Positions 4,845-64,000 of a stretch of DNA of 64,000 nt are shown here, one piece after another. The notes beneath the pieces are model-generated. The model did not search any database. It saw only the letters and a list, made by a program, of their open reading frames with translations, and was not told the DNA's origin. Source of the DNA: Acidobacteriota bacterium (lineage in GTDB: Bacteria > Acidobacteriota > Thermoanaerobaculia > Multivoradales > UBA5704); assembly GCA_040005235.1 (NCBI GenBank), contig JBDTZG010000003.1, forward strand, positions 160,001 through 224,000, in the 5' to 3' direction. How positions within the stretch are numbered: the first letter of the stretch is position 1; the number at the start of each line of letters is the position of its first letter. The translations under genes and the position numbers were made by a program.

Positions 4845-6947
4845 TCAGGCCAGCGCGCCGCCTTTGCGGACCTCGGCGCGCAACTCCTCCACACGTTCGA
4901 GCGTCGTCCGCACCTCCGGCAGCTCGGCCATCTCTTCGAGGGTGTAGCGGGCCTTACGCTGCCAGTTCGGCCGCTCGACGTGGGTTCCCGGGACATTCTG
5001 CGGCCGGGTCTCCCCCCAGAGGTCTTCGAGGTTGACCAGGGCGATCGGCGCAGGGCTTGCGGCCAGGTGCTCGTGGAGCGCGAGGGAGACCTGGGAAAAC
5101 TTCTGGTCTTCCGGGATGCTCCCGCCGCGGGTGATCGCCACCGCGGTAGCGAGCCGCGTTCGCAGGCGGCCCCGACGCTCGCGATCGCGTGCCGCCACCT
5201 CGTCGTCGATCGCGCCCAGCGCCTGGAGGTCGGCGATCTCGGCGCCCTGCCAGTAGGAATGAAACGGCGGCATGTCATGGGTGTTCAAAGAAGCCGCGGT
5301 GTTGGCGGGCGGTTTGCGGATCAGCTCCGGACCGTCGGGGTCGAGCTCGTACTGGGCGACGAACAGGCCCATGATGTTGTGGCGTTCCATCGCCTCATAG
5401 ACCTCGGGGGCGACGGTGCCGAGGTTCTCGCCGACCAGCGCGGAGCCGTGGCGGTGCGACTCGATCGACAGCACGGCGTACAGCTCCTCGGCCGGGTAGG
5501 TGACGTAGACCCCCTCGGTCGCGGGCAGGCCGTTCGGCACCCAGAACAGGCGGTGGAGCTGCATCACGTGGTCGATGCGCAGGAGGCCCGCGTGCTCCAG
5601 GTGATGGCGCAGGCTCGCGATCAGATAGTCGTAGCCGCGCTCGCGTTGGCGCTCGGGGTGGATCGGCGGAAAGCCCCAGTCCTGACCCCCTTGAAACAGC
5701 GCGTCCGGCGGCGCGCCGGCAGAAGAACCCCGGGCGAACAGATCGGGAAAACGCCAGACGTCGAACGAGCTGCCGTGCACTCCGAGCGGCAGGTCGAGGT
5801 AGAGCCCCGGTCCGCGGGCGCGGGCGGAGGCGGCCAGCTCGGCGAGCTGCTGCTCCGCGGCCCACTGTGCATAGAGGTGATAGCGCACCGTCTCGGGAAG
5901 GAAATCGGCGTCGGCCAGGCGCCCCTCGCGCTCGGCTTCCGGCCAGCTTTGCCACGAGGTGCCGTGACGGTCGCCCACAGCGCGGAATTTGGCGTATTCC
6001 TGAAGGTACGGCTTGGTCTTCAAAAAGCGCTCGAACTCCGACCGGCGGCCGTCCGAAAGCGACAGGGTGCTCTTCGCCAGCTCGGCGAGGACGCTCCGCT
6101 TGAGCTTCGCTGTGCGCGCCCAATCGACCGAGCCCAAGGCTGCGAGCGCCGCCGCCTCGGCGAGAAAATCGGCGCTTTCGACCAGCGCGCGGGCGCTGGC
6201 CGATCCGGAAAACTCAGGCAGGCGGCGCGGATCGACATAGACCTCGTTCCAGAACAGGCGCGAGGCGGGGGCGTAGGGGCTCGGCTCGAACGGCTCGGAA
6301 CCGAGAAAGGTCGCGAGCAGCGGCAGGGTCGCGACCAGGCCACCGCCGTACTCGGCGAGCCAGCGCGCCAGGCGGTCGAGATCGGAAAAATCGCCCGCGC
6401 CCCAGCTGTCGGCGGTGCGCAGGGCGTAAAGCGGAAGAAAGCCCCCCCAAAGACCGCGCTGCCGCAGCTCGAAACTGCGGCGCGGCGCGGCGAGGATCAG
6501 GACCTTCGAACGCTCGCCACGCACCTCGATCGTCAGGTGGTGGTTGCCGACCGGCACCGATTCGACCACCGGCAGCAGAACTTCGCCGGGGACGGCGCCC
6601 GGCCGCAGGGTGGAGCCGTCGATCGAGGTCAGCCAGCGATCGCCGCTTTCGAGATCAAGCTGGCAGCCGAACGCCCCCGTCCCGGGCGGCAGGCGCAGCG
6701 GCACGTAGACTTCCTTGCCCTCCCAAGAAACGACCACCGGCGGCGCCAGCCGCTCGGCAAGCTCGCGGCGCCGCTCGGCCAGTGCGTCGGTCGCGTCGGC
6801 GCTCCGATCGATCGGAGCGCCGAGCGCCGCAAGCACGCCCAGCAACGCCTCGGGGCTCGCCTGGCGGTCGTGGTGCCAGGCGTCGCGATAGGCGGTCTGC
6901 ACGCCGTGCAGGCGGGCGAGCTCCAGCAGATCGGAGTCAGACGACAT
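4845..6947 (-). CDS. malQ: 4-alpha-glucanotransferase (GH77)
   Basis: SPYAPASR, YLDLPLG, GAPPD..GQDWGFP, LRIDHV, GENLG, NVPGT..NWQRK. Confidence 0.95.
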   Translation of the reverse strand: MSSDSDLLELARLHGVQTAYRDAWHHDRQASPEALLGVLAALGAPIDRSADATDALAERRRELAERLAPPVVVSWEGKEVYVPLRLPPGTGAFGCQLDLESGDRWLTSIDGSTLRPGAVPGEVLLPVVESVPVGNHHLTIEVRGERSKVLILAAPRRSFELRQRGLWGGFLPLYALRTADSWGAGDFSDLDRLARWLAEYGGGLVATLPLLATFLGSEPFEPSPYAPASRLFWNEVYVDPRRLPEFSGSASARALVESADFLAEAAALAALGSVDWARTAKLKRSVLAELAKSTLSLSDGRRSEFERFLKTKPYLQEYAKFRAVGDRHGTSWQSWPEAEREGRLADADFLPETVRYHLYAQWAAEQQLAELAASARARGPGLYLDLPLGVHGSSFDVWRFPDLFARGSSAGAPPDALFQGGQDWGFPPIHPERQRERGYDYLIASLRHHLEHAGLLRIDHVMQLHRLFWVPNGLPATEGVYVTYPAEELYAVLSIESHRHGSALVGENLGTVAPEVYEAMERHNIMGLFVAQYELDPDGPELIRKPPANTAASLNTHDMPPFHSYWQGAEIADLQALGAIDDEVAARDRERRGRLRTRLATAVAITRGGSIPEDQKFSQVSLALHEHLAASPAPIALVNLEDLWGETRPQNVPGTHVERPNWQRKARYTLEEMAELPEVRTTLERVEELRAEVRKGGALA

Positions 6948-59957: not shown

Positions 59958-61321
59958 GCCCCTCCTCCCGCCTGTTCGGCACCGACGGCATCCGCGCGCC
60001 GTTCGGTACTCCGCCGCTCGATCGCCGGACGATCTCCGCCCTCGCCCACGCACTCGGCGCAAAGCTCCGCGCCGCCCGGGCCGACGGCGCCTTGCCGATC
60101 GTCATCCTCGGCGGCGACACCCGAGAGAGCACGCCGGAGATCTGTGCCTGGCTCGCGTCCGGGCTTGTGCCGGAAGGTGTCGAGGTTCGCTACGAGGAGG
60201 ACATCCCGACGCCCGGCATCGCGTACCTCGTCCGCCGACACGGCGCGGCCTGCGGCATAGCGGTATCGGCGAGCCACAACCCGGTGCCCGACAACGGCGT
60301 CAAGCTGATCGACGGCGAAGGCTTCAAGTGGACGGAAGAGGCGGAAGCCGAGCTCGAATCGGAATTGCTGGCGATCCGCGATGCTCCGGATTTTGCCCCG
60401 AAGGCCGTGACCGCTCTGAAGCGCTACAAGGGTCTGGTCTATGAATACCTCGACGCCCTCTACGGGGATCTACCCGGGAAGAAAACGCTCGCGGGCTTGA
60501 AGCTCGCGATCGACTGCGGCAACGGAGCTGCGTCCGATTTCGGGAACGCCCTGTTCGGTGGCATCGGCGCCACGGTCCAGGTGATCAATGACCGGCCAAA
60601 CGGCACGAACATCAACGCCGGCTGCGGCTCGACCCATCCGGAGGTGGTTGCATCGCGCGTCTTGGAGATCGGCGCCGACATGGGGCTGGCGTTCGACGGC
60701 GACGCCGACCGCTGCATCCTGGTCGACGAGCGCGGCGAGGTCCGCGACGGCGACGCGATCCTCTACCTCTGGGCGCGCGATCTCGCGGCGAAAGGCGAGC
60801 TGCCGCACCGAAAGATCGTCGCCACCTCGATGAGCAACCTGGGCCTGGTGCGAGCCCTCGCGCGCGAAGGCATCGGCGTCGTCCGCTGTGATGTCGGCGA
60901 CCGCCAGGTGGTCGCCACCATGAAAGCCGAAGGGATCGTCCTAGGCGGCGAGCAGTCCGGCCACATCGTCTACCTGAAGGAAGCGAGCACGGGAGACGGC
61001 CTGCTCACCGCCCTCCACATCGCCACCCTGCGAGCCCGATCCGGCGAGCCGCTCTCCCAAATGCTGGCCGGCTTTCGCCGCTACCCCCAGATCCTCAGCA
61101 ACATTCCAGTCCGCGAGAAGAAATCCTTCGCCGACCTACCCGGAGTCGCCGCCGCCGCCGCCCGCGTCGAACAAAGGTTAGGAGACGACGGCCGGCTCGT
61201 TCTGCGCTACAGCGGCACCGAGCCCCTCGCCCGGATCATGATCGAAGGGGCGGACCAGGCCGAGATCACCGCACTCGCGGGCGAGATCGCGACGGAGATT
61301 CGCGGGGCGATCGGGGCGTAG
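59954..61321 (+). CDS. glmM: Phosphoglucosamine mutase
   Basis: FGTDGIR, SASHNP, DGDADR, GGEQSGH, RYSGTEP. Confidence 0.96.
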   Translation: MSPSSRLFGTDGIRAPFGTPPLDRRTISALAHALGAKLRAARADGALPIVILGGDTRESTPEICAWLASGLVPEGVEVRYEEDIPTPGIAYLVRRHGAACGIAVSASHNPVPDNGVKLIDGEGFKWTEEAEAELESELLAIRDAPDFAPKAVTALKRYKGLVYEYLDALYGDLPGKKTLAGLKLAIDCGNGAASDFGNALFGGIGATVQVINDRPNGTNINAGCGSTHPEVVASRVLEIGADMGLAFDGDADRCILVDERGEVRDGDAILYLWARDLAAKGELPHRKIVATSMSNLGLVRALAREGIGVVRCDVGDRQVVATMKAEGIVLGGEQSGHIVYLKEASTGDGLLTALHIATLRARSGEPLSQMLAGFRRYPQILSNIPVREKKSFADLPGVAAAAARVEQRLGDDGRLVLRYSGTEPLARIMIEGADQAEITALAGEIATEIRGAIGA

Positions 61322-61478
61322 GGGTGCATCGCAGTATCTAAATTCCAGCCCCCTGAGCGATCGGTAATATGCTAGACTTTTGTGGCAAGAAATTTTCCAG
61401 TGTACCTGCATGCACCAACGGTTTTCGCGGCAGTCCAACCCAACCGGCGCTTGGTTTGGCCAAGAAAGGGAATCCGAC

Positions 61479-61931
61479 ATGACGCAGAAGGTGGTACCTC
61501 AAGTTGCTCCGCATTTCACACTCCCTACGGCACGGTTCATCTCCCTCCACGATCTCGGCGCCCAGGGCCCGGTGATCCTCGTGTTCTATGACGCGCGTGG
61601 GGCGGAGTTCTGAACGAAGCGCCTGACTGCGTTCGAGGCGAATCTGCCTCAGTATCGTGGTCAGAATGTCCAGGTTCTGGGCATCAGCGCTGATAACGAT
61701 CCAGTCGCCACGGCCAAATGGGCCAGGGAGATCGGCGTCACCTTCCCCCTGCTGTCTGACCACGATGGGGTGATTGCAAGGCAGTTCGGACTTTTCGACG
61801 AGAAGTCGGCACTTACTGCTAAGGCCGTGGCAGTCATCCATGATGGGGCTATCATTCACAAGGAAATTGTAACCAGCACCGAGGTACCAGAGCGCCTGCT
61901 CCCGTGGATGGCCCGCGTGGCGGGCCTGTAG
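61479..61931 (+). CDS. Peroxiredoxin/AhpC-TSA-like protein with in-frame TGA (candidate selenoprotein)
   Basis: MTQK..APHFTLP..VILVFYDARGAEF-TGA(61611)-TKRL..QVLGISAD..TFPLLSD..IARQFG; the frame continues to TAG 61929-61931. Confidence 0.75.
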
Positions 61932-62067
61932 CCGCCCATACGCAGTCCCTGTTTTCTGCCCGGGAATCGGCCCGCCGATGCCGCGAGGCGCTGTTCGCCT
62001 CGCGGCCACCGCGCCGCAGAGCCCCACCACCTGTCGGCGGAGCGCGCGGAGGGCTCTGCCGAAGCGC

Positions 62068-62415
62068 ACCATCGGTGAGCTGGACCGCGACACCGGTGCG
62101 CTGGGCCAGAGCACCAGTGAGCTGAACCGTGAAAGCAGTGTCCTGGGCCAGAGCACCGGTGAGCTGCACCGCAACACCACTGCCCTGGGCCAGAGCACTG
62201 CTGAGCTGAGCCGTAACACAAGTGCCCTGGGCCAGAGCACCGCTGAGCTGGACCGCAACAGCAGTGCCCTGAGCCAGAGCACCGGTGGGCCGGACCGTGA
62301 CAGCAGTGCCCTGAGCCGGAGCACTAGTTAGCCGGACCGTGAAACCAGTGCCCTGAGCCGGAGCACCCGTGAGCCGAACCGTGACAGCAGTGCCCCGAGC
62401 CGGAGCACCGGTGGG
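62068..62415. repeat. 21/42-bp tandem repeat (about 8 x 42 bp)
   Basis: Alternating AGCACCGGTGAGCTGAACCGT-like and AACAGCAGTGCCCTGGGCCAG-like units. Confidence 0.92.
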
Positions 62416-62456
62416 TAGTGGGGTATTAGGCCGGTTGCTACCCGGTTCCCAAGCCT

Positions 62457-62491
62457 AAAGCAAAACGCCCGGCGATTATCCCGCCGGGCGT
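62457..62491 (-). terminator. Rho-independent terminator for the HicBA-like pair
   Basis: 10-bp stem ACGCCCGGCG/CGCCGGGCGT followed on the minus strand by TTTGCTTT. Confidence 0.7.
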
Positions 62492-62515
62492 GGAGTTTGG
62501 TTCAGTTGCGGCAGC

Positions 62516-62794
62516 TCACCCGAGATCAAGGCCGATATTGAGGTCTGCCGGATTGATCTTGAGTTGCCTACAAAGGCGCCGGACTAAGTCCCAACCGCAC
62601 TTCTGCTCCTCGTCTTCCGGGAGCGGCTCCGTCCACGTTTTCATTCCGTCGCGCTCGAATTCGAGATAGCGGATCTCTGTAGGCCCGCGTGGCCCCACAA
62701 GGCCGCCGGGCAGCGCGGTAACCTTAACCCCCAAGCCCTCCATTTTCTGGACGAGGACGCGAACCGCGGGCGACTGACCAAAAGGGTAGGCCAC
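62516..62794 (-). CDS. Small protein, divergent HicA-like
   Basis: 92 aa; C-terminal LVRRLCRQLKI resembles the HicA helix; abuts the upstream gene. Confidence 0.5.
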   Translation of the reverse strand: MAYPFGQSPAVRVLVQKMEGLGVKVTALPGGLVGPRGPTEIRYLEFERDGMKTWTEPLPEDEEQKCGWDLVRRLCRQLKINPADLNIGLDLG

Positions 62795-63139
62795 TTAGGC
62801 GGCTTTCCTCTCGCCTTCTGCTACCTTCATCGTAGTTTTTGGTACAGCAACTCGACGCGGAGCCCTGAAGCGAGGCTCACCGCTCGATACTACTGAGAGC
62901 GTTGCCTTCCGCCATAAATCCCAGTACTCGCGAGGCGCGGACTCAAGCTCTGAAAACGGCTCGATCTCCCTGGCCGCGCACGTAACGGCGTAGCCGACGA
63001 TGGCGCGCTCCAACTGGTAAGCCAAGTCCGGCAGTGTCTCGGCCTGCGCGCCAACGTCGTACTGAAGACACTGGCCAACCCAGCACCCGGGCTCTCTTTC
63101 AAAGAGTATTGCGTCAATCTCTATGCTAGGCGTTGCCAT
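62795..63139 (-). CDS. HicB-like antitoxin-fold protein
   Basis: WVGQCLQYDVGAQAETLPDL resembles the HicB N-terminal motif; start ATG 63139. Confidence 0.6.
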   Translation of the reverse strand: MATPSIEIDAILFEREPGCWVGQCLQYDVGAQAETLPDLAYQLERAIVGYAVTCAAREIEPFSELESAPREYWDLWRKATLSVVSSGEPRFRAPRRVAVPKTTMKVAEGERKAA

Positions 63140-63396
63140 AGCGTTCTCCCCGGCCGGGCAAAGCCTCAAGCGAGAGAAACGACCCAGGCTTGCCCTGCGG
63201 TATGCGGCGAGGTTAGTTTTTAACCCGCTTGACTGTCAAGAGGTAGTTTCTTCAGAGTCCAAGAGGCACACCCTAACTAGCTGGCCTCGTTGAGTTTAAT
63301 CAGCTGGGGCGGGGAATTATTCCAGCCGCGCCACGGGTACCGCCGCGGGCCAGCGGGTTGTAGCGGGTGATGAATAGCGGCTGAAGCGGCAGAACC

Positions 63397-63999
63397 TTAA
63401 GCTGCAACCGCCGCGTCGAGCAGGTCGCCCATGCTCCACAGGTTGCGGGTGAGCCCGGCGTTCATCGCGGGAGTCATCCGAACCGAGCGGTGGATCTTCA
63501 CCAGGTTGTAGTAGGCGAAGAACAGGGCGAGCGCCGCGCGGAGGTTCGCCTTCTTCCGCGAGAAGCCGTTCGAGAGCCGGGTGAAGCGGCGCATGTGCGT
63601 CCGAAGCGTCCAGTTGGCCCGCTCGATCCGCGACGTGCCGATGCGGTCATAGTCGGGGGTCCCGGAGATCCAAAACTTTTCCTGACCTATCAGGCGCGGC
63701 GGAGCATACCGCCGCGCCTCTTGACCTCCAACCGAACCGAATTCCTTGACGACTTGGCCGTAATCGACCCGGGCGCCGAAGTTCTTCTCGACCGCTTCGG
63801 CGTAGCCGCTGAAGCCGTCCGTGCTGAGGTGAAACCGGCCCGTCGTCGCGCCCGCGAGCTTGCCCATGAAGGTATCCGCGTCTTCCGAGGTGCGCTTGCC
63901 AAGGTGCCAGGCGAGAACAAGTTTCGTCTCGCGCGACAGGCCGATGAAGCAATAGGCGTCGCCCGCGTCCGGGGTTTGGATCTTCTTCCGCTTGACGGT
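63397..63999 (-). mobile_element. IS1-family transposase (5' end outside the window)
   Basis: Open to the window edge: GDAYCFIG..ETKLVLAWHLGKR, STDGFSGY, TSRIERANWTLRTHMRRFTRLSNGFSRK, YYNLVKIH, TPAM. Confidence 0.88.
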
Positions 64000-64000
64000 G

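Follow-up and report, generated by a model that had tools for sequence, protein, structure and literature searches.

Near the end of the 64,000-nucleotide stretch of Acidobacteriota bacterium DNA analysed here (hereafter the window; positions 160,001 to 224,000 of contig JBDTZG010000003.1), a frame of 150 codons runs from an ATG at 61479 to a TAG at 61929-61931 and contains a single in-frame TGA, which falls at codon 45 (Table 1). There is no second stop and no frameshift anywhere across this frame, and when the TGA is read as selenocysteine (Sec, U) the resulting protein carries the motif F36-Y37-x7-U45 and not one Cys. An earlier model-made reading of this DNA (the sequence-only reading) had singled out the frame as a candidate selenoprotein related to the peroxiredoxins (Prx), and the frame, the position of the TGA, the motif and the lack of Cys that it described were all verified in the translation of 61479-61931. 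The start at 61479 is consistent both with the N-termini of homologs and with database entry P0017. Read by the standard code, the frame breaks up into an N-terminal piece of 44 residues and a remainder without a start, and the sole entry for this gene in the public protein collection is the 44-aa N-terminal stub, P0017.

Table 1. Features at the candidate selenoprotein locus, in window coordinates, together with the selD gene of the same genome (SECIS, selenocysteine insertion sequence; ORF, open reading frame).
Feature	Coordinates	Strand	Remarks
Possible ribosome-binding site AAAGGG	61465..61470	+	8 nt 5' of the ATG; proposed from reading the sequence alone
Candidate selenoprotein gene	61479..61931	+	150 codons plus TAG; predicted AhpC/TSA (peroxiredoxin) fold; one Sec, zero Cys
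In-frame UGA, very probably read as Sec (U45)	61611..61613	+	Position of the peroxidatic Cys; first turn of model helix 43-54
SECIS-like two-part hairpin, 42 nt	61623..61664	+	Begins 9 nt 3' of the UGA; RNAfold and conservation
Lower stem, 9 bp	61623-61631 with 61656-61664	+	RNAfold; recovered by RNAalifold
Upper stem-loop	61635-61650	+	GAGGC (61635-61639), GAATCT, GCCTC (61646-61650); apical loop GAAUCU (AAUC with a closing G-U pair)
Strain-specific lower-GC stretch	61322..64000	.	From the end of glmM; holds the repeat array, two small ORFs and the IS1-like remnant
328-aa open frame	61338-62324	-	Antisense to the candidate selenoprotein gene and the tandem array; most likely an artefact of high GC
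ORF of 14-residue repeats	61978-62331	+	No Pfam match; overlaps the tandem array
Tandem array	62073-62413		Downstream of the candidate selenoprotein gene; about 8 copies of a 42-nt unit (83% matches)
Two adjacent small ORFs	62516-62794, 62795-63169	-	92 and 124 aa; no Pfam match at E <= 0.001
IS1-like transposase remnant	63397-63999	-	PF03400, E 2e-07; runs off the window end
selD (selenoprotein, T-T-G-G-U-A-A-K)	G000:C7:16837-17772	-	Locus L001, own genome

When contigs from metagenomes and genomes were searched, together with sampled genomes, a TGA at the homologous codon turned up in four further loci: a metagenome contig (L030), a Thermoanaerobaculaceae metagenome-assembled genome (MAG; L042), an Armatimonadota MAG (L043), and L046, which is the same place as L053 and comes from a genome present under two handles (G109 and G505). 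The proteins read through these TGAs are 54, 52, 48 and 38% identical to the window protein, respectively, and the similarity reaches the C-terminus. In addition, the study behind the window covered a second sample, a contig of which (run X2, record 3) is identical to the window over 61584-62050, with 0 differences and the TGA included; this sample is possibly not fully independent of the one that yielded the window. The presence of the TGA in the second contig means that it is no one-off assembly error.

These findings bear directly on the possibility that the gene is an ordinary Cys peroxiredoxin gene whose TGA arose by nonsense mutation or through an error of sequencing or assembly. Such a defect would fit with standard gene calling cutting the gene in two (as in P0017), with the location of the gene in a variable, insertion sequence-associated region, and with the hairpin downstream of the TGA, which in the window copy, taken alone, is statistically unremarkable. 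It is difficult to reconcile, however, with a TGA at the same codon in four independent and divergent loci, in each of which the frame stays open and conserved downstream, with the recurrence of the TGA in the contig of the second sample, or with 150 codons free of any other stop or frameshift. The complete Sec machinery of the genome and the retention of the downstream hairpin with compensatory changes, both described below, argue in the same direction. Given the conserved TGA in divergent loci and the second-sample contig, we exclude a nonsense mutation or assembly error as the explanation; it is largely refuted by the evidence at hand, and we consider it very improbable.

Relatives with Cys at the Sec position were also found, comprising 11 full-length proteins (P0002, P0003, P0009-P0012 and P0163-P0167). 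Homologs with a conserved TGA and homologs with Cys, for which the sequence-only reading had proposed to search, thus both exist, and the family does not consist of Cys forms throughout. About 14 further database proteins are C-terminal pieces that begin 2-12 or more residues past the Sec position, which is the expected outcome since gene callers stop at UGA. Two of these fragments, P0019 and P0168, match the TGA loci L046 and L042; the others are counted here as presumed-Sec members, their upstream TGA being presumed and DNA-backed for P0019 and P0168 alone. The fact that databases list C-terminal pieces as proteins could alternatively be taken to mean that the UGA terminates translation and that a separate C-terminal product arises from an internal start. 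In the window, though, the first in-frame ATG, GTG or TTG 3' of the TGA is the GTG at 61770, and the 53 residues that it would yield are without most of the fold and without the active site. Conservation is moreover unbroken across the TGA, and the residue at which the fragments start varies by locus, as gene-caller artefacts would. A separate product of this kind is, in our estimation, extremely unlikely.

The genome that carries the window is equipped to insert Sec. Specifically, selA (442.1 bits), selB (333.3 bits, covering model positions 2-579 of 581), selD (326.6 bits, of the Sec type and with one in-frame TGA of its own) and a tRNA-Sec, the product of selC (70.2 bits against a gathering score of 47, with anticodon TCA according to ARAGORN), all exceed their curated cut-offs. 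A check of the genome for selA, selB, selC and selD had been suggested by the sequence-only reading, which named a lack of Sec machinery as the result that would speak against a selenoprotein; the full set was found. Of the 13 genome-wide matches to AhpC-TSA, the gene at 61479-61931 is the only one with a TGA. Immediately 3' of the UGA in selD begins a hairpin of -28.1 kcal/mol, and this gene offers an in-genome reference for what the SelB of that genome recognises.

With respect to a recoding signal, the RNA downstream of the UGA is predicted to fold into a two-part hairpin of which the sequence-only reading had seen the upper part. That reading placed a hairpin, GAGGC-GAATCT-GCCTC, 26 nt after the TGA and suggested that these 16 nt were the SECIS element. 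The hairpin is present and 26 nt is indeed the distance from the TGA to the first G of the loop, but the upper stem begins 21 nt past the TGA and constitutes just the apical portion of a larger element of 42 nt. The two-part hairpin is common to the predicted folds of all five TGA forms, and in the lower stem 43 of the 45 cells across the five sequences are standard pairs. Compensatory changes occur at three of the nine lower-stem pairs, where L046 has U-A in place of A-U, L043 has G-C in place of C-G, and one sequence has U-A in place of C-G. When the 3' strand is shifted by 1-3 columns as a control, 27-42% of cells pair. The upper stem-loop is less uniform than the lower stem among the five sequences, whose fold z-scores range widely (-1.60 for the window, then -1.52, -1.18, -4.09 and -3.05). 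In the Rhizobium Cys form (L047) the z-score is -0.08, the hairpin fold is missing, and a by-eye reading allows three of the nine lower-stem pairs.

The peptides encoded by the two arms of the lower stem behave differently. The 5'-arm peptide, R-L-x-A-F/V, is kept in Sec and Cys forms alike, whereas the 3'-arm peptide, Y-R-x-[QH]-[NH], is lacking from all 11 Cys forms but shared by 15 of the 17 Sec or presumed-Sec rows that span this region. The central residue encoded by the 3' arm differs between sequences (G, S, S, A, R), with complementarity between its codon and the T/S codon of the 5' arm preserved. Because the 3'-arm peptide is limited to the Sec forms, it fits a constraint acting at the level of the RNA.

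Several observations nonetheless weigh against reading the hairpin as a SECIS element. In the window copy, 17 of 200 shuffled sequences fold equally well (z -1.60). The covariation test is modest, as it draws on five related sequences and 11 of 500 column shuffles equalled the observed lower-stem pairing. The lower stem also lies within coding sequence, so that peptide conservation accounts for part of the pairing, and the G that a bacterial SECIS is expected to have in its small apical loop comes to lie at the loop start in about four of the five sequences, and there solely through the choice of closing pair. Finally, an Rfam scan of 61400-62000 at E <= 10 gave three chance-level matches and no SECIS family. 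The weight that we place on the hairpin accordingly comes from its being kept in homologs and not from the fold of the window copy alone, and we regard covariation from five related coding sequences as supportive, not conclusive, of the hairpin as recoding signal.

Taken together, the conserved TGA, the Cys homologs, the conserved hairpin and the complete Sec machinery bear out the proposal that 61479-61931 is a candidate selenoprotein gene, and we hold with high confidence that it is a genuine one in which the UGA is recoded as Sec. In the scheme that we propose, the UGA at codon 45 would be recoded during translation, with the mRNA hairpin 9 nt 3' of it serving as a bacterial SECIS. SelB carrying Sec-tRNA(Sec) would bind this hairpin while the ribosome is at the UGA, and Sec would thereby be delivered at position 45.

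The predicted product is a 150-residue protein of the peroxiredoxin fold that is, by modelling and profile comparison, closest to AhpE and BCP. It matches the Pfam AhpC-TSA domain (PF00578) over residues 8-126 with 85.6 bits against a cut-off of 26 (E 3.4e-24) and Redoxin (PF08534) with 50 bits against a cut-off of 26.6. Since the AhpC-TSA match spans the TGA, the claim that fold-like sequence continues past it is upheld. The further claim that the TGA occupies the position of the peroxidatic Cys (Cp) agrees with phmmer alignments to the PDB, which place U45 on the Cp of Aeropyrum pernix BCP (2cx3) and of Mycobacterium tuberculosis AhpE (MtAhpE; 1xxu and 4x0x). An AlphaFold2 (AF2) model built from a 100-row alignment (predicted local distance difference test score, pLDDT, 90.8; predicted template modelling score, pTM, 0.86) puts U45 in the first turn of a helix spanning residues 43-54, in keeping with the location of Cp in the first turn of helix alpha2 that is expected of a catalytic Prx. 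In Foldseek searches with this model, the top matches are chains of MtAhpE (E 5e-13, TM 0.84, 28% identity), followed by many other peroxiredoxins, with at least 500 Prx-type matches in the PDB at E <= 0.001.

Comparison with characterized systems places the window protein nearest to the 1-Cys enzyme MtAhpE (1xxu, 1xvw, 4x0x), which is its best structural match and a near-best PDB sequence match (4.6e-11). Both proteins have about 150 residues and carry one redox residue, number 45, located where helix alpha2 makes its first turn; K115 of the window protein aligns with R116 of MtAhpE, and P137 corresponds to Pro135. The window protein differs from MtAhpE in having Sec for Cys, Asp38 for Pro38, Ala42 for Thr42, Arg48 for Glu48 and Lys115 for Arg116. 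BCP/PrxQ proteins provide the top NCBIfam and PDB sequence matches (PRK09437, E 8.1e-12; 2cx3, E 2.1e-11), but the NCBIfam score is 45.3 bits against a cut-off of 140, the Pro, Thr and Glu of these proteins are replaced in the window protein, and a resolving Cys is lacking.

Likenesses to known selenoproteins are equally partial. Sec-containing Prx, such as PrxU of Eubacterium acidaminophilum and the PF00578 members with TxxU or PxxxTxxU known from metagenome surveys, share Sec at the peroxidatic position, the AhpC/TSA fold and, according to PMC13188914, PMC2398784 and PMC1088965, a bacterial SECIS directly 3' of the UGA. In place of PxxxTxxU, however, the window protein has DxxxAxxU and the other Sec forms have DxxxSxxU. 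Prx-like thiol:disulfide oxidoreductase selenoproteins (UxxC/UxxU) and redoxin/TlpA-type selenoproteins belong to the same superfamily (PF00578/PF08534) and have Sec at the N-terminus of the active-site helix; the window motif is U-T-K-R, without Cys or Sec at U+3. A redoxin gene of the known UxxC type, with TGA in T-W-U-P-F-C, does occur in a genome of the same order (L028; G034:C5, minus strand), and it clearly represents a different family.

The active site of the family is described by the signature F-[FY]-D-x3-[S/A/T]-x-F-[U/C]-x-K-R-L. Residues were counted in alignments A4 and A5 and compared with 78 rows of other AhpC/TSA homologs, and the five later Cys forms were read separately. Seven residues before the peroxidatic position (Cp-7), Asp is present in 11 of 11 full-length family rows (A5; Asp38 in the window protein), compared with Pro in 49 of the 78 others. 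At Cp-3 the family has Ser (6), Ala (4) or Thr (1), compared with Thr or Ser in 59 of 78; the window protein has Ala42, and each of the four remaining TGA forms has Ser. Asp at Cp-7 is seen by eye in the five later Cys forms as well, and their Cp-3 residue is Ala (4) or Pro (1). On the other side of the redox residue, Cp+2 is Lys in 10 of 11 rows (Lys47 in the window protein), whereas no single residue dominates among the others (Lys 17/78), and Cp+3 is Arg in 15 of 15 (Arg48), compared with Glu or Gln in 71 of 78. The site of the catalytic Arg (R116 in MtAhpE) is occupied by Arg in 14 and Lys in 8 of 22 family rows, the window protein having Lys115, compared with Arg in 60 and Lys in 1 of the 78. 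A C-terminal Pro (Pro137) is present in 22 of 22 family rows, compared with 36 of 78.

The Lys at the Arg site is distributed unevenly, in that 10 of 19 Sec or presumed-Sec members have it, as against 0 of 11 Cys members; since the members are relatives, this split is to be read as a pattern and not as a statistic. In PMC7231847, the highly conserved residues of MtAhpE are given as Cys45, Thr42, Glu48, Arg116 and Pro135, with Pro38 in the active-site cluster. From this set, the window protein retains only the chalcogen, the basic residue and the C-terminal Pro. The sequence-only reading had remarked that the usual Pro, Thr and Arg appear replaced. This holds across the family for Pro to Asp, while Thr to Ala and Arg to Lys are confined to this copy and some of its relatives; the exchange of Glu/Gln for Arg at Cp+3 has to be added as a second family-wide change. 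The Asp at Cp-7 and the Arg at Cp+3 therefore sustain the notion that the active site is non-canonical and the subfamily a distinct one.

In terms of function, the protein most likely works as a 1-Sec peroxidase-like enzyme. The selenolate of Sec45 would attack a hydroperoxide or a similar oxidant and be converted to a selenenic acid, which an external thiol, be it a thioredoxin- or glutaredoxin-type protein or a low-molecular-weight thiol, would reduce back. An external reductant would be required because the protein is without a resolving Cys, having no Cys at all. Whether a genuine selenoprotein of this kind would act specifically as a hydroperoxide peroxidase appears evenly balanced to us because the Thr and Pro positions are non-canonical. 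As a matter of speculation, Asp38 could be the proton acceptor, and Lys47 and Arg48 could stand in for the functions of Thr and Arg.

A number of findings tell against a classical peroxidase, and most of them also favour the possibility that the protein is a genuine selenoprotein engaged in other chemistry, such as redox sensing or reduction of particular disulfide, sulfenate or persulfide groups in partner proteins or small molecules. The Pro of catalytic Prx at Cp-7 is replaced by Asp throughout (11/11), the Glu/Gln at Cp+3 is replaced by Arg in every row (15/15, where Glu/Gln prevails in other AhpC/TSA homologs), and the catalytic Arg is Lys115 in the window copy. Furthermore, no hydroxyl is offered at Cp-3 by the window copy or by 8 of the 11 Cys forms, of which seven have Ala and one has Pro. 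According to PMC7231847, the Thr at this site of a Leishmania Prx can give way to Ser and to nothing without a hydroxyl, which makes the hydroxyl a requirement in the Prx tested. No NCBIfam peroxiredoxin model reaches its cut-off with the window protein, the best being BCP (NF006960), with the scores given above; PrxU (NF040737; 34.4 against 270 bits), SelL_rel_redox (21.7 against 120 bits), PrxQ, AhpC and Tpx likewise stay below theirs. The AhpC/TSA and redoxin folds also include thiol-disulfide oxidoreductases, and there are weak matches of the window protein to ResA and DsbE.

Other chemistry is, on the other hand, less easily squared with a single redox residue and the absence of CxxC, UxxC or any second Cys, an arrangement that suits a 1-Cys Prx better than a disulfide oxidoreductase. 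The best sequence and structure matches are all peroxiredoxins, all 22 members compared have a basic residue at the Arg site, and the C-terminal Pro (Pro135 in MtAhpE) is invariant. No conserved neighbour gene that hints at a partner was found at the five loci compared (window, L048, L049, L053 and L047), where the neighbours all differ, and this counts against other chemistry as well as against our own proposal. On balance we regard other chemistry as a real, if lesser, possibility. A further idea is that the family forms a separate, so far undescribed branch of the Prx fold in which Asp at Cp-7 and Lys-Arg at Cp+2/+3 assume the roles of Thr and Arg, Sec relaxes the remaining constraints, and the substrate is maybe not a simple hydroperoxide; this we put forward tentatively, as rather unlikely. 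Considered as a whole, the explanation that combines an intact selenoprotein gene, a downstream SECIS and a 1-Sec peroxidase-like enzyme seems to us likely to be correct.

The peroxiredoxin-fold family described here is rare. Genomes were sampled from the phylum to which each of three carriers belongs, and members were found in 2 of 401 for the window (own genome included), in 2 of 400 for the Thermoanaerobaculaceae MAG and in 1 of 401 for the Armatimonadota MAG; G109 and G505, identical in contig and coordinates, are one genome that is counted in both of the first two samples and that is reported to belong to the same class as the genome of the window. A collection of 5.8 billion proteins yielded fewer than 30 family members. 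Among 40 genomes of the same genus, family or order, no ortholog was found with this query, and five other matches in these relatives, at 32-36% identity, were set aside as ordinary or unrelated redoxins. An ESM Atlas query with the natural Cys homolog P0002 returned generic AhpC/TSA clusters only.

A tree was built from 28 rows, with six picked BCP/AhpE-like outgroup proteins beside 11 full-length members and 11 fragments and with P0163-P0171 left out. In it the family is set apart from the outgroup proteins with support 99/95, and the Cys forms make up one clade with support 99/99. The backbone among the Sec forms is poorly supported and the root is a midpoint root, and we claim no direction for the switch between Sec and Cys.

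The surroundings of the gene suggest how it may have reached this genome. Similarity to all seven of seven same-genus genomes ends at the glmM stop (61314-61329), and the downstream block of the nearest relative is matched again only about 5.9 kb later, at roughly window-equivalent position 67183. The GC content of the candidate selenoprotein gene is 59.4%, and 69.5% at third codon positions (GC3), compared with 68% and 85% for glmM. The break in similarity, the lower GC and GC3 and the IS1-like remnant thus point to horizontal acquisition of the gene. A HicAB-like (toxin-antitoxin) pair had been considered for the two small ORFs at 62516-63169, whose layout is alike; they have no Pfam match and the guess was dropped. 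A promoter and terminator scan showed no promoter-like site upstream and no intrinsic terminator, and such a scan is uninformative for this organism.

The gene is flanked in the window by glmM, the repeat array and the IS1-like remnant. Elsewhere the neighbours are a hypothetical protein and a Y2 transposase (L048), a UvrD-type helicase and an acyltransferase (L049), an ABC auxiliary lipoprotein and a Kelch protein (L053), and genes for a non-ribosomal peptide synthetase (NRPS) and a sugar ABC transporter on a Rhizobium plasmid (L047). At this last locus (Rhizobium sp. TAL182 plasmid pRetTAL182d, 506 kb; 5001-5426), the Cys form lies directly 3' of NRPS and 4'-phosphopantetheinyl transferase genes, an adjacency that is absent at the other loci.

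The existence of Sec-containing Prx-like proteins, which the sequence-only reading had taken as established, is documented in PMC2398784, PMC1088965 and PMC13188914, covering Sec-containing Prx (TxxU/PxxxTxxU), Prx-like UxxC proteins and other redoxin-type selenoproteins. The motif DxxxS/AxxU is absent from Table 1 of PMC13188914, which lists 119 selenoprotein families (supplements aside). A search of the full-text literature found no paper on a DxxxS/AxxU family; large surveys may count such sequences under "Prx, PF00578". We therefore describe the gene, from its sequence and that of its relatives, as a putative member of a peroxiredoxin-fold subfamily that has Sec and Cys forms and a non-canonical active site, and not as a new category.

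A second AhpC/TSA-like family with TGA was also encountered on metagenome contigs (L031, at 73-489, L032, L033 and L034; database entries P0101, P0172 and P0173). Its members are seemingly secreted, carry F-A-F-T-G-G-U-T-K with Val or Ile at the Pro site and Thr retained, and are 34-38% identical to the window protein; here too, the entries in the databases are C-terminal fragments. The Armatimonadota MAG contains another AhpC/TSA-like match interrupted by a single in-frame TGA, L050 (G435:C116:5677-5997), with E 5e-13 to the family profile.

Current views are not overturned by these results, as Sec-containing Prx and Prx-like proteins are well documented. A gene of this kind is invisible to standard callers, so that selenoproteins would be under-counted in this Acidobacteriota lineage and in the other organisms that carry it. 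Prx catalysis is usually credited to an invariant set of Pro, Thr, Cys and Arg, and the family described here keeps the fold and the chalcogen while swapping Pro for Asp and Glu for Arg. The exchange of Arg for Lys appears to be tolerated in Sec forms only, which may make the family a natural system for asking which parts of the scaffold Sec makes dispensable, and its natural Sec/Cys pairs would offer a test of what Sec buys the enzyme. In the Sec forms alone, moreover, the 3' arm of the putative SECIS would impose the peptide Y-R-x-Q-N, a case in which an RNA signal may shape the sequence of the protein that it helps to encode.

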